Origin: an uncultured Candidatus Rokubacteria bacterium
GTDB lineage: Bacteria; Methylomirabilota; Methylomirabilia; Rokubacteriales; CSP1-6
Assembly (NCBI GenBank): GCA_963771355.1
Contig: CAVYTA010000006.1
Span: 320,322 to 384,321, forward strand
DNA: 64,000 nt
Reading direction: 5' to 3'
Positions 686 through 7,853 of this stretch are shown one piece after another; the first letter of the stretch is position 1, and each line of letters starts with the position of its first letter. Under the pieces are notes generated by a model that worked only from the letters and a program-made list of their open reading frames with translations, did no database searches and had not been told where the DNA came from. The position numbers and the translations under genes are program-made.

Positions 686-744
686 GCGCCCATCGTAGGG
701 GCGCGGGACGAGCGCGTCAACGTATCGGGACGGATACGCAGCCG

Positions 745-973
745 CTACAGCGCGGCGTACACCAGGTCGATCAGATGCCGCACGTGCTTGTGCTGCCAGC
801 CCATGCGGCCCTGTTTCATGGCGTAGCCGATGGCGACGCGCGCGTCGGGATCGGCGAAGCCGAGCGAGCCGCCCGCGTCGAGCGCCCGCCCGCGCGCGTC
901 CTGCTCGGGGCTGGGCGGCGGCGGGATGTAGTCGGCGCAGCGCGCGTCGTGCTCAGGTCCGAGCCCCCAGTGC
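745..973 (-). pseudogene. 5'-truncated, internally deleted duplicate of the beta-lactamase-family serine hydrolase gene (paralog of 1771..2925)
   Basis: Minus-strand translation HWGLGPEHDARCADYIPPPPSPEQDARGRALDAG/GSLGFADPDARVAIGYAMKQGRMGWQHKHVRHLIDLVYAAL* aligns at ~85-90% with two segments of the 1771..2925 protein (HWGLGPEHDARCADFIPPPPSPEQDERVRALDAG ... GGSLGLADPDARVAIGYAMNQGRMGWQHKHVRHLIDLLYAAL*). About 120 aa are deleted in frame between them. The N-terminal ~190 aa, including the SxxK catalytic motif, are absent. The nucleotide similarity is visible directly (ctacagcgcggcgtaca.caggtcgatcag...). Confidence 0.6.
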
Positions 974-1231: not shown

Positions 1232-1669
1232 ATGACAGCATATCGGTCATTCGTGCTCGCGCTCGCAGTCACGGTCCTGGCGGCAGGGCCGGCGCTCGCC
1301 AAGGGCGGGGGTGGGGGCGCTGGTGGCGGGGGTGGGGCGGGAGGCGGTGGCGGTGCCGCCGGCGGAAACGCGGGAGGCAACGGGGGCGGTAACGGTAACG
1401 CGGGCGGCAATGGCAACGGCGTCGCTGCCGGCCAGGGTGGCGGGAACGGTCAGTCAGTGGGTGCCGGTCAGTCAGGAGGCCCTGGCCACACAGTGGGCGC
1501 TGGGCGCGGCACCGCGCTCACCGCACCCGGCAGCCAGCATCGTTCCGATACCGCCACCGGGCGCCTTTCCAGCCCGACGCCGGGACACGCGAATCCTCCC
1601 AGTGGGGTGACACCGGGCTTCGGTCACGTCGGCACCGTGCCGACGACTCCCGGCCACCAAGCGCCGTAA
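1232..1669 (+). CDS. Secreted glycine-rich low-complexity protein (signal peptide + GGxGG/GGNG repeats + Thr/Pro/His-rich tail)
   Basis: AGGAGG Shine-Dalgarno (SD) 7 nt upstream of the ATG. N-terminus MTAYRSFVLALAVTVLAAGPALA|KGGGG is a classical Sec signal with an AxA cleavage site. ~60% Gly over residues 25-95. The C-terminal 50 aa are rich in T/P/H/G. It lies downstream of an unusually AT-richer 250-bp stretch (985-1230, ~52% GC). Confidence 0.7.
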   Translation: MTAYRSFVLALAVTVLAAGPALAKGGGGGAGGGGGAGGGGGAAGGNAGGNGGGNGNAGGNGNGVAAGQGGGNGQSVGAGQSGGPGHTVGAGRGTALTAPGSQHRSDTATGRLSSPTPGHANPPSGVTPGFGHVGTVPTTPGHQAP

Positions 1670-1770: not shown

Positions 1771-2925
1771 CTACAGCGCGGCGTACAGCAGGTCGATCAG
1801 GTGGCGCACGTGCTTGTGCTGCCAGCCCATGCGGCCCTGGTTCATGGCGTAGCCGATGGCCACGCGCGCGTCGGGATCGGCGAGGCCGAGCGAGCCACCC
1901 GCGCCGAAGTGCCCGAAGGCACGCGGCCCGGGGCCGAGCCGCCGCTCGGGCATGGTGAGCTGAAAGCCGAGCCCGTAGCGCGTAGGGCGCTCCAGCACGA
2001 CGTCCGGCCCATTCACCTGCTCGGCGATGGCGCGGGTCACCGTCTCCGGCGCCAGCACGTGCACGCCGTCGAGCCGGCCGTCCGTCGCCAGCGCCGAATA
2101 GAGCCGCGCGATCGCCCGCGCATTGCCGTGCCCGTTGGTCGACGGTACCTCCGCGGCCCGCCACGCGCGCGTGTTCACGATGCGCATCCCGGATAGGCCC
2201 GGCGGGTTCCAGTAGGCGTTGAAGCGCATGAGCGGCAGGCCGCTGAGGTCGCCCGGGCCCGCGTCGAGCGCCCGGACGCGCTCGTCCTGTTCGGGGCTGG
2301 GCGGGGGCGGGATGAAGTCGGCGCAGCGCGCATCATGCTCGGGCCCGAGCCCCCAGTGAAAGTCGATCCCCGCGGGCCCGGCCAGGTGTTCGCGGAAGTA
2401 GGCGCCGATCGACTGGCCGGTGACGCGGCGGATCACCTCGCCGATCAGGAAGCCCTGCGTGTTCACGTGATAGCCGTGGCCCGTGCCCGGCACCCACCAG
2501 GGCGCCTGGGCGGCGAGGGCCTCCGTCATCAGCGCCCAGTCGCTCCAGGCCTCGGGGGGCAGCGTGCGGGCGACGGCGGGGAGCCCCACCTGGTGGGTGA
2601 GGAGGTAGCGCACGGGGACCTGCGCCTTCCCCGCCTGGGCAAACTCGGGCCAGTAGCGCGTCACGGGCGCATCCAGATCGAGCCGGCCGGCCTCGACCAG
2701 GCGGAGGAGGCAGACCGCGCTGATCGCCTTCCCCACGGAGAAGAGGTTGACGAGGGTGTCGCGGGCCCAGGGGCGCGTGCGGGCGGCGTCGGCGTGGCCG
2801 GCCCAGAGGTCGACGACACATTGCTTATCGACGTAGACGGTGAGGGCGGCGCCGACTTCAGTGGCGGAAGCGATCGTTGCGGCGAGCGCGTTCTCGACCG
2901 CTACGAAGCGTGGGTCGAGGGACAC
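1771..2925 (-). CDS. Serine hydrolase, beta-lactamase / penicillin-binding-protein fold (class C / EstB-like esterase family)
   Basis: 384 aa. S-V-G-K (SVGKAIS) matches the SxxK active-site motif near the N-terminus, with overall family resemblance. GTG start at 2923-2925, only 10 nt after the top6A stop (2936-2938), so it is co-transcribed with the Topo VI genes. Confidence 0.85.
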   Translation of the reverse strand: MSLDPRFVAVENALAATIASATEVGAALTVYVDKQCVVDLWAGHADAARTRPWARDTLVNLFSVGKAISAVCLLRLVEAGRLDLDAPVTRYWPEFAQAGKAQVPVRYLLTHQVGLPAVARTLPPEAWSDWALMTEALAAQAPWWVPGTGHGYHVNTQGFLIGEVIRRVTGQSIGAYFREHLAGPAGIDFHWGLGPEHDARCADFIPPPPSPEQDERVRALDAGPGDLSGLPLMRFNAYWNPPGLSGMRIVNTRAWRAAEVPSTNGHGNARAIARLYSALATDGRLDGVHVLAPETVTRAIAEQVNGPDVVLERPTRYGLGFQLTMPERRLGPGPRAFGHFGAGGSLGLADPDARVAIGYAMNQGRMGWQHKHVRHLIDLLYAAL

Positions 2926-2935
2926 AAGGCGGACC

Positions 2936-4045
2936 CTAGTCCAGCCAGTCCTCGTCCTTCAGTTTCTTCGGTAGGTACGTCTTCGTGAGGTAGCGGAAGT
3001 CCTTGTTCGCCAGCGCGTCGAGCTCGTACTTGAGCCCGCTGCCGAGCATGCGCTTGATCTCTTCCTGCCAGGGTTTCTTTTCGAACCAGCGATACTTCAG
3101 GAGCTCCTTGGCTCGGCTGATGTCCTTGTCGTTGAGCTTGATGCCGACGTTGCGGGGCAGGCCGTAGGCGTCCGCGTCGGCGCTGGAGAGGCCGATGAAC
3201 TTGGCTTTGGGGATGGCCATACGCTCGCTCTCGAAGGCGAGGTTGATGGAGCCCTGCTTCACCACCGAGTAGATGTAGTAGCCCCAGGGGTCGTTGTCCA
3301 CGAGGACGTAGACGGGCAGCCTGTACTCCTCGTGGAGGCGCCGGGCCAGGCGGCGGACGCCGCGCGGGGGCTGGCCGTTGCCGGTGAGGAGCACGCAGTT
3401 GTAGCGGCGCCAGAACTTGTCCTCGGAGAGGCGGTTCCACTGGGTGCCCTTCTCGACGAGGAGGACGAAGTCGGCCGTGCAGCGGCGGATCTCGATGTAC
3501 TCGGGCTCCACGATGGACGGCACGGAGTAGCCGCCCTTGCCCAGGCGCGCGCAGTCCACCCGGTCGCCGTCGTCGCCGAACACCACCGGCCCCACGATGC
3601 TGCCGGCGTTCTCCGCGCGCACGTGGAGCTCCTCGCGGAGGGCGGCGAGCGTGACCTCCAGGTCCTCGATCAGCGGATCGGACTCGTTCTGGTTGTCGAA
3701 GGTGTTCTCGTGCGAGCCCTTCATGGTGTGCTTGGTGCGGTAGTAGATCTCGCGGAGCGAGGTGGTGAGGTTCGCCCGCTGGAGCTCCGAGAGCGCGTCC
3801 GCCACCAGCACGGTCTGCATGAACTTCTTCGCCATGCCCACGTTGAAGAAGTTGCGCGCCTGCTTGCGCTTGCCCAGCTCGATGATGCCGCGCTTGGCGT
3901 TGAAGTTGATGTTGGCCAGGCTCCGCACGGGGATGGCCAGCGTCGGGTCCTTGCTCTTCTCCGCCGCGGTGATGACCGTGTCGGCCACGCTGATGAGCTT
4001 CTTCTCCACCGCGCCCGTCTTCTTCGCCGCCGCCGCTTTGGCCAT
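2936..4045 (-). CDS. top6A: DNA topoisomerase VI subunit A (Spo11/Top6A; type IIB topoisomerase catalytic subunit)
   Basis: 369 aa. Conserved catalytic-tyrosine motif REIYYRTKH in the CAP-like domain. Toprim DxD motif in VLVDNDPWGYYIY. Size typical of archaeal Top6A. AAGGA SD upstream of the ATG at 4043-4045. Confidence 0.85.
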   Translation of the reverse strand: MAKAAAAKKTGAVEKKLISVADTVITAAEKSKDPTLAIPVRSLANINFNAKRGIIELGKRKQARNFFNVGMAKKFMQTVLVADALSELQRANLTTSLREIYYRTKHTMKGSHENTFDNQNESDPLIEDLEVTLAALREELHVRAENAGSIVGPVVFGDDGDRVDCARLGKGGYSVPSIVEPEYIEIRRCTADFVLLVEKGTQWNRLSEDKFWRRYNCVLLTGNGQPPRGVRRLARRLHEEYRLPVYVLVDNDPWGYYIYSVVKQGSINLAFESERMAIPKAKFIGLSSADADAYGLPRNVGIKLNDKDISRAKELLKYRWFEKKPWQEEIKRMLGSGLKYELDALANKDFRYLTKTYLPKKLKDEDWLD

Positions 4046-4057
4046 GAGTTCTGTCCT

Positions 4058-5041
4058 TTACTCGACGATCTGGTCCGCACGCAAGAGGAGCGTCTGGGGC
4101 AGCGTGAGGCCGAGCGCCTTGGCCGTCCGGAGATTGATGGCGAGGTAATAGCGGCTGGGCCGCTCGACGGGGAGGCTGCTCGGGGTGGCGCCCTTGAAAA
4201 GTCGGTCCACGTAGCTCGCGGCCCGGCGGTAGTTTTCGTCCGGGCTCGCGCCGTAAGACATGAGGGCGCCGTCCTGAACGGGGACGCTCACCTCGTACAT
4301 GGCGGGGATCCGGTGCATGACGGCGAACTCGATGACGCGCTTGCGATTGAGCAAGGTGAGCGCGTCCGTCACCAGGAACATGGCGTCGGGACGACGCTGC
4401 GTCATGGCGGCGAAGGCCACGTCGAAGTCATTCGGCTCGCGGACGCCGAGGGCCTGCACAGTGACGCGGAGGACCTGGGCGGCCTTCTCCACGTTCTGAT
4501 AGCGCATGGTCATGCCCAGGTCGTCGGCGTTCCAGAGGACGGCGATGCGCTCGGCCTTCGGCACGGCCTCCTTCAGGATCTCCAGGCGCTTGGCGCTGAG
4601 CTCGGCGGACTGATCAGTCACGCCCGTCACGTTGCCGCCGGGATGGGCGAGGCTGTTGATCAGGCCGAGGCCGTCGGCATCCCCCACGAGGGCCATCACG
4701 ATAGGAATGGTGGAGGTCGCTTGCCTGGAGGCGGCGGTCGCGGGCCCGCCGGCCGTCACGATGACGTCGACCTTCTCCCCCACCAGCTCGGTCGCGAGCG
4801 GAGGGAGCCGCTCTTGTCGCGCGTCGGCCCACCGGGCGACGTACACGACGTTCTGCCCCTCGACGTAGCCGAGATCCTTCAAGGCCTGCCGCAAAACTGA
4901 AGGCGCGGCGCCGTCCGGTGGCCGCGCGTTACCGGACAGGAAGCCGACGCGCCACGTCTTCCCCCGCTGCTGCGCATCGGCAGTGGCCGGCGCGGCGAGG
5001 AATGAGAGGGCGAGGAGGAGCGCAATCGCGGCGCGCAGCAT
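4058..5041 (-). CDS. Periplasmic ABC-transporter substrate-binding protein, PF04392 (ABC_sub_bind) family, orphan (no permease or ATPase adjacent)
   Basis: 327 aa. Signal peptide MLRAAIALLLALSFLAAPATADA. Family-typical segments (VGFLSGN..., KVDVIVTAGGPATAA..., IPIVMALVGD..., NVTGVTDQS...). Its ATG (5039-5041) overlaps the top6B TGA (5041-5043) as TGATG. Its stop lies 12 nt before the top6A start. Confidence 0.8.
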   Translation of the reverse strand: MLRAAIALLLALSFLAAPATADAQQRGKTWRVGFLSGNARPPDGAAPSVLRQALKDLGYVEGQNVVYVARWADARQERLPPLATELVGEKVDVIVTAGGPATAASRQATSTIPIVMALVGDADGLGLINSLAHPGGNVTGVTDQSAELSAKRLEILKEAVPKAERIAVLWNADDLGMTMRYQNVEKAAQVLRVTVQALGVREPNDFDVAFAAMTQRRPDAMFLVTDALTLLNRKRVIEFAVMHRIPAMYEVSVPVQDGALMSYGASPDENYRRAASYVDRLFKGATPSSLPVERPSRYYLAINLRTAKALGLTLPQTLLLRADQIVE

Positions 5042-7029
5042 CACTTGCGCTTGGCGGGCTTGGCCTTGCGCTTCGCGGCCTTCGCGGGCTTGGGCGCACG
5101 CTTGGTGGCCGTCGCGGTCTTCGTACCCTTCGCCTTTGCGCCTTTCGCCTTCACGGCCTTCGCCTTCTTCCCGCGCGCGGGCTTGGCGGTATCCGGCTCG
5201 GGCGCTTCGATCGCCGCCGGCTCCACCACCCCCGCCGCCTCCGGGAGCACCGGCGCCTCGCCCTCCGCGCCCTCCGGCGTCACGATGATCGAGTGCGGCA
5301 GGCCCTCGGGCCCGCTGTCGTGGCCGAGGATCTGGTCGGTCTTGGCCCCGCCGGTGCGCTTCATGGCGATCTTCTGGAGCTGGGCCTTGAGCTTCTCCTT
5401 GGGCAGCTTGCCGCCCTTGAGCCGGGCGCAGGCCTCCACGACCTCCTCGATGTAGAGCTCGAAGATGTTGCGCCGGCGGAACTCGCCCTTGGCCCGCTCG
5501 CGCCGCCGGAGGAAGACGCCGAGCCGCCGCCCGCACTCCTGCAGCGCGAGCTTGATCTCCTTCCGGATCTCGTCGTAGTCGGCGATGGCTTCCTTGGACT
5601 CGCTGGTGAACGGCACCCAGACCGAGGCCATGTGGACGAAGATCACCATGGGGCCGGCGGGGAGCGCGCCCCGCGACTGGGCGATGCCGTAGTTGCGCCA
5701 CGCGGTCTCGAGCGCGGCCTTGAAGGTGGCGCAGGCCGACTGCTGGTAGAGGAGGGGCACGCGGTTGGCGTAGCGGATGACGCGGGCCAGCTCACTGTCC
5801 TCTTCCGCCTGCTCGCCCTCGGCCAGCGGCACCGCGGGCGCGTCCAGGGCGGCGGCCTGGCCCGGGCCCTTGCCGAAGGCCAGGCCCGCCTCGATGACGA
5901 ACGGGTTGCCGCGGTACACCGACGGCGGCCGGGTCACCGCCGTGTAGAACTCCCCTTTGATCTGCTTGTAGAGGCCGTGGAGGATCGCCTTCTCGCCGAT
6001 GGGCGAGATGCAGTTGGACGGCGGCGCCATGATCTTGGTGGCCTGGATGGCCTTGTAGAGCGCCTCCGCGTCGGCGCCGTGGATGTTGCGGGGGCGCGCG
6101 TTCGGGTTGAGCTTGGCCGTCTTGCTGATCTCCTGGGCCAGCGCGGGAGACACCCGGCTGAAGTCGCCCGAGAGAAAGCCGGAGAGCCAGTGGCTGCGCG
6201 TGTCGTGGAGCATGCGCAGGAGCACGCCGAACTCGATCCCATAGGGATGCGGCTTGATCTCGCTCGGCTGGGGCGGCAGCTCCTCGATCGTCCGCGGGTA
6301 CTCGCGGGTCTCGCCGTCCGGGGCGTGGTAGACGAGCTGCACGTGCGGGTTGGCGATGGCGACCTGCTCGAGGAACTCGTCCACCGAGGCGCGGCCCTTC
6401 TGGTAGCGCCCCTCGATCTCGAGGGTCACCTGGGTGCCGCGCTCGTGCGCCCAGTCGATCTTCTTGCTCTCGAAGATCCGGGGCTCGTTCTTCTTGGTGT
6501 CGATCTGCACCTCGAAGTAGTGCGCGGCCGCCCGCGCGCCGGTGCGCGAGGTGATCTGCACCGGCTTGCCGGTGGTGATCTGGGCATACATGCCGGCCGC
6601 GGAGATGCCGATGCCCTGCTGGCCCCGGCTCATGCGGAGGCGATGGAACTTCGAGCCGTAGAGGAGCTTGGCGAAGATGGGCGGGATCTGCTGGCGGACG
6701 ATGCCGGGGCCATTGTCGCTGACGGTGACGCGGAACCGGGTGGCCTGGCTGGCCGGCGGCGGCGGCGCGCCATTGCTCGACGCCACTTCCAGCGTGACGA
6801 CCACCTCGGGCAGGATGCCGGCTTCCTCGGCGGCGTCCAGCGCATTGTCGACGGCCTCCTTGACGCAGGTGAGGAGGGCCTTGCGCGGATTGTCGAAGCC
6901 GAGGAGGTGGCGGTTCTTGGTGAAGAACTCGGAGACGGAGATGTCGCGCTGGCGGGCGCCCATCTCGGCGGCGGACGGCGGCGCCACCTTCGGCGCGGCG
7001 GGCGGAGCCTTGGCGAGCGCGATGGCCAT
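5041..7029 (-). CDS. top6B: DNA topoisomerase VI subunit B (GHKL ATPase + transducer) with a C-terminal Lys/Ala-rich histone-H1-like basic tail
   Basis: 662 aa. Bergerat-fold motifs are present: N-box EAVDNALDA, G1 VSDNGPGI, G2 GQQGIGIS. N-terminal region resembles Top6B (ISVSEFFTKNRHLLGF). The last ~60 aa are ...AKPARGKKAKAVKAKGAKAKGTKTATATKRAPKPAKAAKRKAKPAKRK. Confidence 0.85.
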   Translation of the reverse strand: MAIALAKAPPAAPKVAPPSAAEMGARQRDISVSEFFTKNRHLLGFDNPRKALLTCVKEAVDNALDAAEEAGILPEVVVTLEVASSNGAPPPPASQATRFRVTVSDNGPGIVRQQIPPIFAKLLYGSKFHRLRMSRGQQGIGISAAGMYAQITTGKPVQITSRTGARAAAHYFEVQIDTKKNEPRIFESKKIDWAHERGTQVTLEIEGRYQKGRASVDEFLEQVAIANPHVQLVYHAPDGETREYPRTIEELPPQPSEIKPHPYGIEFGVLLRMLHDTRSHWLSGFLSGDFSRVSPALAQEISKTAKLNPNARPRNIHGADAEALYKAIQATKIMAPPSNCISPIGEKAILHGLYKQIKGEFYTAVTRPPSVYRGNPFVIEAGLAFGKGPGQAAALDAPAVPLAEGEQAEEDSELARVIRYANRVPLLYQQSACATFKAALETAWRNYGIAQSRGALPAGPMVIFVHMASVWVPFTSESKEAIADYDEIRKEIKLALQECGRRLGVFLRRRERAKGEFRRRNIFELYIEEVVEACARLKGGKLPKEKLKAQLQKIAMKRTGGAKTDQILGHDSGPEGLPHSIIVTPEGAEGEAPVLPEAAGVVEPAAIEAPEPDTAKPARGKKAKAVKAKGAKAKGTKTATATKRAPKPAKAAKRKAKPAKRK

Positions 7030-7058
7030 GCCCCACTTGATACCAGACCCGTGCTCGA

Positions 7059-7853
7059 TTGGCCCCCCGAAAATGTCCGTGGCAGAATGACGGCATGAGT
7101 ACCTCGACTCGCCTGGCCGTGCTCAGCGTGCTCGTCGCGATCGGCGCCGTCGCGACCTACGTGCTCCTCCTCGGGGTGGCGGTGGTGCGGAACCACCCGG
7201 AGGGCTATGTGATCGCGTTCGCGGTGGCGACGGGCCTGGCGGTGCTCGCCGTGGTTCGCGCGCGGACACGGCGCTGGCCCGCCTGGGTGGCGCTGGGCGT
7301 CACGAGCCTCCTGCTGATCGCCGGCGCCTGGTTCAACTTCGTGGTGACGCGGGTGCCCGATGCTCCGGTGGCGTTCAAGGTGGGCGAGCCGGCACCGGAC
7401 TTCACCTTGCCCGATGCGGCGGGCCGTCCCGTCGCGCTGGCGGACTATCGCGGCAAGAAGCCGGTGGTGCTCGTCTTCTACCGCGGCTACTGGTGACCGT
7501 TCTGCGTGTCCGAGCTCCAAGGTCTTGGAGCCCAGCTTTCGGAGGCCGAGCAGGCGGGCGTCGAGATCATCGCCATCTCGCCCGATCCCAACCAGCGCAG
7601 CCAGGAGCTCGCCGAGGGCCTGCGCCTCGGCTATCGGTTCGTCGCCGACGGCGATCTCGCGGTGGCGCGGCGCTACGGGCTCGTCCACGCGGGCGGGGGG
7701 CCGGAGGGAAAGGACGTGCCGCGCCCGGCCACGGTGGTGCTGGACAAGCAGGGGGTCGTGCGCTGGTTCTCGGCCAGCCACAACTTCCAGGTGCGGCCCG
7801 CTCCCGGCGAGGTGCTCCGCGTGGTTCGTTCCCTCGTGGCGGAAAAGGGCTAG
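7059..7853 (+). CDS. Candidate selenoprotein: membrane-anchored peroxiredoxin/redoxin-family (AhpC/TSA-like) protein with in-frame UGA (Sec) at 7494-7496 in a U-P-F-C redox motif
   Basis: ORFs 7059..7496 and 7506..7853 share a frame and are separated only by TGA. The combined translation gives 2-3 N-terminal TM helices, then ...FKVGEPAPDFTLPDAAGRPVALADYRGKKPVVLVFYRGYW-U-PFCVSELQGLGAQL..., the canonical peroxiredoxin/BCP architecture. The TGA sits exactly where the peroxidatic Cys belongs. A SECIS-like hairpin lies 17 nt downstream. An alternative start is the ATG at 7095 (MSTSTRL...). Confidence 0.65.
7514..7531 (+). promoter_or_regulatory. Putative bacterial selenocysteine insertion sequence (SECIS) hairpin: 7-bp stem GCUCCAA/UUGGAGC with GGUC apical loop
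   Basis: Perfect 7-bp stem (7514-7520 pairing with 7525-7531) closing a 4-nt loop GGUC (7521-7524). It begins 17 nt after the in-frame UGA (7494-7496). This position and the G/U-containing apical loop resemble the E. coli fdhF SECIS upper stem-loop. Confidence 0.5.

Follow-up and report, generated by a model that had tools for sequence, protein, structure and literature searches.

The locus analysed here, a stretch of DNA of 64,000 nucleotides (hereafter the window), raises the question of why the two subunit genes of a topoisomerase VI (Topo VI) should be parted by a gene coding for a periplasmic solute-binding protein (SBP) and followed by a hydrolase gene, and of whether these functions belong together. 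All four ORFs are present on the minus strand, in the order top6B, SBP gene, top6A and hydrolase gene, and the coordinates given for them in a preliminary description of this DNA were reproduced. As a whole, the analysis makes it very probable that the cluster consists of a functional bacterial Topo VI core, to which a lineage-specific SBP and a strain-level hydrolase were added as passengers without any mechanistic link to it.

The subunit B gene, top6B (5041..7029, minus strand), codes for 662 aa comprising a GHKL ATPase, an H2TH domain, a transducer and a basic C-terminal tail. Its product scores 658 bits against NF003218 (cut-off 274) and 504 bits against TIGR01052 (cut-off 381), matches PF09239 and PF02518, and aligns continuously from residue 17 to 529 with residues 3-481 of M. 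mazei 2Q2E_B (E=4e-136); the H2TH domain has no separate score and falls inside this alignment. The EAVDNALDA, DNGPGI and GQQGIG motifs (N, G1 and G2 boxes, respectively) and the switch-lysine motif SESKEAIA are conserved with respect to 2Q2E_B, and the tail, from about aa 610 to 662, is Lys/Ala-rich and basic, with 35% of K+R in the last 60 aa. As for top6A (2936..4045, minus strand), its 369-aa product contains a 5Y-CAP domain with the catalytic Tyr and a Toprim domain, reaches 562 bits with NF003333 (cut-off 465), matches PF21180, PF04406 and PF20768, and aligns with S. shibatae 2ZBK_A (E=6e-79) and M. mazei 2Q2E_A, the alignment with the M. mazei subunit starting at residues 11/14. Compared with these two structures, REIYY corresponds to the catalytic Tyr region, and LLVEKG and VDNDPWG to the Toprim E and DxD; the residue-level alignments of the Topo VI subunits also took in 1D3Y, and the catalytic residues are conserved. 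Values of dN/dS are about 0.10 for top6A and 0.16-0.26 for top6B. The motifs quoted in the preliminary description are all present and line up with the catalytic residues in the archaeal Topo VI structures, and its proposal of a complete Spo11-type enzyme with separate A and B subunits stands, both subunits exceeding the NCBIfam equivalog cut-offs and neither ORF falling outside the Top6A/Top6B families. With all catalytic motifs intact, the core of the cluster is predicted to be a functional bacterial Topo VI.

A Topo VIII or mini-A identity was also considered, and rejected on the basis of two separate subunits that both score above the Topo VI equivalog cut-offs. These type IIB enzymes, which belong to mobile elements (PMC7671362), resemble the Topo VI of the window in their Bergerat-fold ATPase and 5Y-CAP/Toprim chemistry; the gene pair of the window, unlike their genes, is not flanked by mobile-element genes.

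Both subunits align over their full length with archaeal Topo VI (2Q2E, 2ZBK), with conserved catalytic and ATP-binding motifs, although the closest match differs between them: Top6B scores best against M. mazei (458 bits vs. 281 bits for S. shibatae), and Top6A against S. shibatae (269 bits vs. 197 bits for M. mazei). The end of Top6B is distinctive, since the window protein has a Lys/Ala-rich basic tail of about 50 residues where M. mazei has an Ig-like domain and S. shibatae no extension; the Ig-like C-terminal domain of 2Q2E_B is unmatched, the alignment ending at about its residue 481. By analogy with the solved archaeal enzymes, the two subunits would form an A2B2 heterotetramer that makes a transient double-strand break with a two-nucleotide stagger and, using ATP, passes one duplex of DNA through it; chromosome relaxation and decatenation are its likely role. 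Outside Pseudomonadota and Terrabacteria, topo IV is absent and Topo VI is the proposed decatenase (PMC11302465). The host lineage probably lacks topo IV, and a search of the 64-kb window for GyrA/ParC and GyrB/ParE motifs gave none.

The enzyme is known from 17 bacterial families, including Nitrospiraceae (PMC11302465), a survey in which the phylum of the present soil host, Rokubacteria/Methylomirabilota, is not named. The view that it is only sporadic in bacteria proved understated for the phyla compared here: at least 584 relatives were confirmed in the genome scan, and the Topo VI of Nitrospira had already been described (PMC11302465). There too, A and B are separate subunits with neighbouring genes, and the window Top6A is 82-86% identical to that of many Nitrospira genomes; an exact-sequence look-up of this Top6A gave no match. 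When 80 related species genomes (Rokubacteria, Nitrospira and Binatia), among the matches listed, were compared, Top6A identity to these species representatives ranged from 82 to 94%, and relatives with adjacent subunit genes and no SBP were indeed found: in 78 of the 80, top6A directly follows top6B. In such SBP-free relatives, the conserved end of top6B reads ...KRKKR*, and the two-gene spacing consists of the stop codon, 2-12 nt and the ATG. In Rokubacteria, Nitrospira and Binatia, the ancestral, or normal, arrangement is a compact top6B-top6A operon; no conserved third gene was found beside the pair across the phyla compared, and the four-gene order is not conserved past the immediate strain. 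Compared with the surveyed bacterial Topo VI (PMC11302465), the window sublineage differs in that an inserted SBP gene parts top6B and top6A.

At the left insertion junction (5039..5043, minus strand), direct reading shows a TGATG stop/start overlap, in which the TGA of top6B (5043-5041) and the ATG of the SBP gene (5041-5039) have the A at position 5041 in common. At the right junction, the SBP stop codon TAA (4060-4058) is followed by the 12-nt spacer AGGACAGAACTC (4046..4057, minus strand), which contains a Shine-Dalgarno-like AGGA for top6A, and then by the ATG of top6A at 4045. Further on, the TAG of top6A (2938-2936) is separated by 10 nt from the GTG of the hydrolase gene at 2925. The overlap and both gaps are those announced in the preliminary description. 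No internal minus-strand terminator was predicted between 1771 and 7029, and the promoter scan of the cluster gave no match to the sigma-70 consensus. On the basis of spacing and of the absence of predicted internal promoters and terminators, the proposed single transcription unit is probable for the four genes, which would be co-transcribed and translationally coupled. None of them had a match in the PADLOC defence-system scan.

The inserted gene itself (4058..5041, minus strand) codes for an orphan periplasmic SBP of 327 aa, whose residues 50-325 match PF04392 with 145 bits (cut-off 25.9). Its N-terminus carries an intact putative signal peptide, MLRAAIALLLALSFLAAPATADA/QQ, so the protein is expected to act outside the cytoplasm. 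Its GC3 is 0.89 vs. 0.96-0.97 in the top6 genes, and a dN/dS of 0.17-0.24 indicates purifying selection. Solved PF04392 structures bind aromatic amino acids, namely L-Trp, L-Tyr and L-Phe (PMC10443332). An identity with TrpX (NF041285) was rejected: at 145 bits, the protein is not a TrpX orthologue because it scores far below the equivalog cut-off of 390. It shares with TrpX-type SBPs the same domain over the whole mature protein and an N-terminal export signal, but, unlike them, it has no adjacent permease or ATPase and belongs to a huge orphan expansion found in arrays. That it is an orphan, as first described, was borne out: no cognate permease (PF02653) or ATPase lies within 30 kb, and the sole ABC system of the 64 kb, at 37.2-41.8 kb, is a Liv-type transporter equipped with a PF13458 SBP of its own.

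The family is abundant: 6956 homologues reach E<=1e-60, and at least 576 came up when metagenomes were scanned. Tandem arrays contain up to eight paralogues (L146, L159); the array copies in L081, L082 and L084 are 75-77% identical and carry twin-arginine signals, and the tandem genes in L081 and L082 are joined by the same kind of stop/start overlap as that of the window. Elsewhere, L174 copies lie behind a molybdenum hydroxylase gene (4-nt overlap) and a CoA-transferase gene (5-nt gap), whereas the copies of P0029 and L171 have ordinary intergenic gaps, the L171 copy standing alone. A comparable case may be that of Bordetella and Cupriavidus, with their orphan Bug/TctC expansions. In the Rokubacteria genome paper, no mention of an SBP expansion or of a topoisomerase was found.

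Between top6B and top6A, the SBP gene was found in only one Rokubacteria sublineage, and always with the same junctions. The left junction reads AAGCGCAAG-TGATG in L161-L170, with variants in L005 (ACG-TGATG) and L006 (AAG-TGATC, with a GTG start), and the right junction is GAR-TAA-(A)GGAC-N6-9-ATG in all SBP-bearing loci. This confinement to one sublineage, together with the identity of the junctions, argues for a single insertion. Two independent insertions were considered because the SBP tree separates the L005-like group from that of the window, and were rejected since both junctions are the same in the two groups. In the neighbour-joining trees of top6A and of top6A+B, SBP-bearing loci do not form a clade and are interleaved with SBP-free ones, the SBP-free L001 being the sister of the SBP-bearing L005 with 100% bootstrap in the top6A/top6B tree; a single gain must therefore have been followed by losses or by allelic recombination. 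Beside the insertion, a sliding-window identity test located no recombination tracts. The insertion is not a very recent neutral event, as it is common to a sublineage that has already diverged (dS about 0.6-0.7), and purifying selection acts on the SBP. Retained at exactly this place, between top6B and top6A, the SBP gene may owe an advantage to the position itself.

The passenger reading can be set out as follows. A single copy of the massively amplified PF04392 family was inserted exactly at the B/A junction, bringing with it the family-typical TGATG overlap, which now supplies the top6B stop codon, and top6A kept its ribosome-binding site. Ribosomes reaching the end of top6B would start again on the SBP gene, translation of top6A would begin from the AGGA in front of it, and all three genes would thus be expressed from the top6 promoter. 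The SBP would then be exported via its signal peptide and capture a solute for an ABC permease encoded elsewhere, in another compartment than Topo VI and mechanistically unconnected to it; selection keeps it as a protein, a passenger using a steadily expressed housekeeping operon.

An alternative that gives selection a larger part is adaptive promoter capture with cassette-like mobility, in which PF04392 SBP genes would enter operons as single-gene units via their conserved 5' and 3' ends, the top6 site having been selected for its steady, growth-linked expression. The array-type overlap brought to the top6 locus, the close packing of L174 family members behind unrelated enzyme genes, the maintenance of the SBP by purifying selection and its patchy distribution inside a shallow clade all fit this alternative. 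It is nevertheless unlikely, given that the junctions showed no recombinase, repeat or attachment site, that just a single insertion event is documented at top6 and that the P0029 and L171 copies have ordinary gaps. Its broadest form is quite improbable: the orphan PF04392 SBP genes of Rokubacteria-type soil bacteria would be self-contained, operon-invading cassettes, whose TGA-ATG overlap and conserved 3' end allow non-disruptive entry, the top6 copy being kept for its replication-linked promoter. If this were true, active gain, loss or allelic exchange of the cassette would lie behind its presence in some very close relatives and its absence from others, and the synthesis of a nutrient-capture protein would be tied to a replication-linked housekeeping promoter.

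At the other end of the cluster, the hydrolase gene (1771..2925, minus strand, GTG start) codes for a 384-aa serine hydrolase of beta-lactamase fold, with 233 bits for PF00144 (cut-off 27) over residues 17-378 and a Ser-x-x-Lys nucleophile motif, SVGK, at residue 63. It has this full-length fold and motif in common with family VIII carboxylesterases/LipL, but stays under every NCBIfam equivalog cut-off, the best being LipL (206 bits vs. 650). Its position after top6A was observed only in the window strain and in the 99%-identical L161; it was found in none of the 68 loci with a downstream flank of 1.5 kb or more, and is absent from the SBP-bearing relatives L167 and L170. In L126, a 70% homologue adjoins SBP paralogues. 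The flank past top6A also contains a Gly-rich ORF and a partial duplicate of the hydrolase gene (744..972, minus strand) that has decayed and lost an internal stretch, and in which aa 190-223 are fused to about aa 326-384, with 91-93% amino-acid identity by tblastn and, by blastn, 87-90% identity to 1770-1945 and 2257-2358. This duplicate, present in L161 as well, marks a local rearrangement; the equivalent flanks of relatives carry a toxin-antitoxin pair, a TetR gene or Uma2. The hydrolase is a strain-level addition, more recent even than the SBP, in a rearranging flank.

It had also been suggested that the genes cooperate; on this reading, the SBP, and perhaps the hydrolase, would work with Topo VI, for example as a topology-tied periplasmic sensor or an accessory subunit. 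Close gene packing, the stop/start overlap and the persistence of the insertion under purifying selection in a diverged sublineage speak for such a role, which the synteny data nonetheless largely refute and which we consider very improbable: 78 of the 80 related species (among the matches listed) lack the SBP despite a near-identical Topo VI, the signal peptide makes the SBP extracytoplasmic, its nearest paralogues belong to SBP arrays or adjoin unrelated metabolic genes, in a family scattered over many unrelated contexts, the hydrolase is limited to the window strain cluster, missing from all 68 flanked loci, and no accessory gene is conserved across phyla. The other suggestion made at the outset, that unrelated functions were captured in one transcription unit, agrees with the comparative data. 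Finally, the notion that the SBP segment (4045-5041) was joined to the top6 locus by chimeric metagenome assembly has practically no chance of being right, for, even though the window (a strain 99.1% identical to ENA ERZ25039531 contig_121) comes from a metagenome-type genome and the highly repetitive SBP family could mislead assemblers, the same B-SBP-A junctions in independent assemblies (a 1.41 Mb ENA contig and, from other samples, five or more short-read contigs) rule out a chimera, six divergent loci (L005, L006 and L167-L170) share these junctions with co-varying sequence, and the ORFs are intact and in frame.

Bacterial Topo VI being already documented, the weight of these observations for topoisomerase biology is small; they extend its hosts to Rokubacteria/Methylomirabilota and Binatia-type MAGs, and indicate that these soil and freshwater phyla commonly possess the enzyme, in a very conserved form (Top6A identity of 82-94% across phyla, among the matches listed), which helps in choosing a bacterial Topo VI for biochemistry. 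As regards the passengers, a translationally coupled, essential operon can apparently take up the gene of an unrelated, secreted protein and remain undisrupted, which calls for caution when function is predicted through guilt by association in genomes with large orphan SBP expansions.

Upstream, the cluster is bounded by a divergent intergenic region of 65 bp (7030..7094), between the ATG of top6B at 7029 (minus strand) and that of a redoxin gene at 7095 (plus strand), which is presumed from the sequence to be the promoter region of the cluster. No tRNA-Sec was found in the 64-kb window; the gene that diverges from the cluster probably codes for a membrane redoxin with selenocysteine (UxxC), and has a SECIS-like hairpin that is energetically unexceptional for such GC-rich sequence (z = -0.43).

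The cluster top6B-SBP-top6A-hydrolase is real and correctly read. Its four minus-strand ORFs, namely top6B (5041-7029), a gene for a periplasmic solute-binding protein (SBP, 4058-5041), top6A (2936-4045) and a gene for a beta-lactamase-fold hydrolase (1771-2925), were confirmed by an ORF check at the positions of the preliminary description. Read directly from the window, the TGA stop of top6B (5043-5041) and the ATG of the SBP gene (5041-5039) have an A in common, 12 nt (AGGACAGAACTC) separate the SBP stop TAA (4060-4058) from the top6A ATG at 4045, and 10 nt lie between the TAG stop of top6A (2938-2936) and the hydrolase GTG at 2925. Since neither promoter-like nor terminator-like sites were detected in a scan of the minus strand inside the cluster, the four genes are likely to be co-transcribed. 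A single transcript would start in the 65-bp divergent region 7030-7094; the SBP would be translated by ribosome termination and re-initiation at the TGATG overlap, and top6A from its own AGGA site.

Concerning the topoisomerase, the claim of a complete Topo VI holds: both subunits are intact, score above the HMM cut-offs (top6B: NF003218, 658 bits for a cut-off of 274, and TIGR01052, 504 bits for 381; top6A: NF003333, 562 bits for 465) and conserve the key residues. As aligned to the solved archaeal enzymes, Top6A keeps the catalytic tyrosine region REIYY and the Toprim glutamate and DxD (LLVEKG, DNDPWG), and Top6B the N, G1 and G2 boxes that bind ATP, together with the switch lysine (SESKEAIA). 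With two subunits, and an A subunit retaining its N-terminal B-contacting part, this is therefore Topo VI proper, and a Topo VIII or mini-A reading is out (criteria of PMC7671362). The enzyme would be an A2B2, ATP-dependent decatenase and relaxase. The nearest solved archaeal relative differs by subunit: Methanosarcina mazei for Top6B (458 vs. 281 bits) and, with the opposite preference, Saccharolobus shibatae for Top6A (269 vs. 197 bits). The Top6B C-terminus (5041-5200, minus strand; residues ~610-662) is a Lys/Ala-rich, histone-H1-like basic tail, unmatched in either solved archaeal Top6B; K and R make up 35% of the last 60 aa. Such tails, variable in sequence, are found throughout the bacterial clade (K+R content with a median of 28% in 79 of the loci L001-L080, the top6 loci of 80 related species genomes) and may be an extra DNA-binding element.

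When Top6A was searched against bacteria and archaea, with each species represented by one genome, at least 584 relatives were confirmed. The best 80 of these, with 82-94% Top6A identity, are hosted by Candidatus Methylomirabilota/Rokubacteria, Nitrospira, Binatia and 'Deltaproteobacteria' MAGs, together with a few other labels that are probably mis-binned contigs. Top6A of Rokubacteria (about 70% GC) shares 82-86% identity with that of many Nitrospira and Binatia genomes, an unusually high value across phyla, which suggests that either constraint is very strong or the top6BA pair passed between phyla relatively recently. Topo VI in bacteria is not new, having been recorded in 17 families, including Nitrospiraceae; in that survey gyrase was always there, topo IV was absent outside Pseudomonadota and Terrabacteria, and Topo VI was proposed as the supplier of decatenase function (PMC11302465). 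The present case belongs to a phylum unlisted in the published survey (PMC11302465).

The conserved unit is the top6 gene pair. In tblastn searches with the four window proteins against all 80 loci, top6B was found directly upstream of top6A in 77, and in L007, which begins just upstream of top6A, the end of the top6B tail immediately precedes top6A; the pair is thus without SBP in 78 of the 80 loci. In these, top6B ends in ...KRKKR* and the top6A ATG follows 2-12 nt on, or the genes overlap. The SBP gene lies between the subunits in L005 and L006 alone. The hydrolase was detected by tblastn in none of the 80 loci, although the sequence extends 1.5 kb or more downstream in 68 of them. Clustering of the neighbouring ORFs gave no partner gene common across phyla, with one exception in the Nitrospira clade, where an unannotated ORF of roughly 540 aa follows top6A in 16 loci. 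The order of the window is hence not kept in these relatives, nearly all of which have B and A adjacent: the SBP is a lineage-specific and the hydrolase a strain-specific addition to the pair. Of the two readings put forward at the outset, cooperation of Topo VI with SBP and hydrolase is not supported by this distribution, and capture stands: the odd gene order is an evolutionary accident in one Rokubacteria sublineage and no new functional system.

SBP-bearing top6 loci comprise the window, a strain cluster from several samples (L161-L166), L167/L168, L169, L170, L005 and L006; the window is also 99.1% identical over 11 kb to a 1.41 Mb ENA contig. At the left junction, the top6B tail meets the stop/start overlap as AAGCGCAAG-TGATG in L161-L170, ACG-TGATG in L005 and AAG-TGATC (GTG start) in L006; the right junction reads GAR-TAA-(A)GGAC-N6-9-ATG in all. 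As both junctions are common to all SBP-bearing loci, in several samples, an assembly chimera at the SBP is ruled out, and they point to one historical insertion. Because the gene is intact in every one of these loci and pairwise dN/dS is low (0.17-0.24 at dS 0.57-0.74; 0.10 for top6A), the predicted protein is, on this coding pattern, maintained by selection. In the top6A and top6B trees, the SBP-bearing loci belong to a single Rokubacteria subclade in which loci without the SBP are interspersed, L001 (SBP-free) being sister to L005 (SBP-bearing; 100% bootstrap). The SBP-free B-A junctions look ancestral, and in the likeliest history the gene was gained once, with later losses or replacement of alleles by recombination.

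The SBP (PF04392, 145 bits for a cut-off of 25.9) belongs to a large family, with 6956 proteins at E ≤ 1e-60 and at least 576 relatives in a metagenome scan. On metagenome contigs L146 and L159, relatives occur in tandem, with up to eight paralogues per array; arrays of 6-8 PF04392 paralogues, whose identity to the window SBP is 34-48%, were seen on L146, L159, L140 and L106, with no permease genes in the examined stretches. In the papers searched, no account of this kind of orphan SBP expansion among soil bacteria was found. The nearest copies outside the top6 context (L081, L082, L084; 75-77% identical) also lie in tandem arrays, carry twin-arginine signals (DRRAF) and abut their neighbours by like stop/start overlaps (GAG-TGATG-GAC, TAGTG). 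The window SBP start, ATG CTG CGC GCC, reads as the array start with the first Arg altered, and L006-type copies retain TRRVL. On L174, relatives are packed closely against the preceding genes, with a 4-nt overlap for a molybdenum hydroxylase and a 5-nt gap for a CoA-transferase; further members are close to a TauD gene or solitary. Unrelated neighbours are thus the norm for this orphan family, and the SBP beside top6 is therefore no pointer to a Topo VI link. That these SBP genes invade operons in the manner of cassettes, or that the top6 position is adaptive, seems very improbable. As for ligands, those of solved family members are aromatic amino acids (PMC10443332), and the SBP scores far under the TrpX cut-off. 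It was rightly described as lacking a permease or ATPase partner, the sole ABC transporter of the window being of Liv type, 32 kb off and equipped with a different SBP; the SBP beside top6 would be exported, with a partner permease encoded elsewhere.

The hydrolase (PF00144, 233 bits for a cut-off of 27) has the Ser-x-x-Lys motif and misses all specific equivalog cut-offs. The window and 99%-identical L161 are the only loci in which it lies behind top6A. Downstream of the intact copy, its middle and 3' parts are duplicated, with an internal deletion, at 744-972 (minus strand; 87-90% DNA identity), and between the two copies lies an ORF (1232-1669, plus strand) for a Gly-rich, low-complexity, signal-peptide-bearing protein without a Pfam match; duplicate and intervening ORF point to a recent local rearrangement. 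A 70% hydrolase homologue lies near SBP paralogues on contig L126; the hydrolase, like the SBP, is part of the variable metabolic gene pool. Farther on, a putative Uma2-family endonuclease gene (PF05685; 107-685, minus strand) matched the PADLOC candidate system PDC-S03 weakly. Uma2 homologues are close to the top6 genes, at differing positions, in L001, L004 and L019; the downstream flank of L001 holds small ORFs and ends in the Uma2 gene, about 0.85 kb from top6A. A Phd/YefM-PIN toxin-antitoxin pair lies upstream of top6B in L002 (2591-3314) and L167 (647-1367), where the window has a redoxin gene, and the L170 flank carries a TetR gene. Judged by this gene content, the sequence flanking the top6 pair is a gene-turnover hotspot.

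The redoxin gene (7095-7853, plus strand), which lies divergently to top6B, codes for a membrane-anchored protein of the AhpC/TSA type and has an in-frame TGA at 7494-7496, in the motif VLVFYRGYW-[TGA]-PFC. Homologues end exactly at ...YRGxW in 70 of the 120 best redoxin clusters, the stop being conserved at 70-89% identity, and 27 more distant homologues have Cys at this position (WCPxC); because of these two features, the redoxin is probably a selenocysteine UxxC protein. No tRNA-Sec was found in the 64-kb window. The TGA is followed, about 17 nt on, by a GC-rich hairpin (7513-7532) that has a GGUC loop and is of unexceptional energy (z = -0.43).
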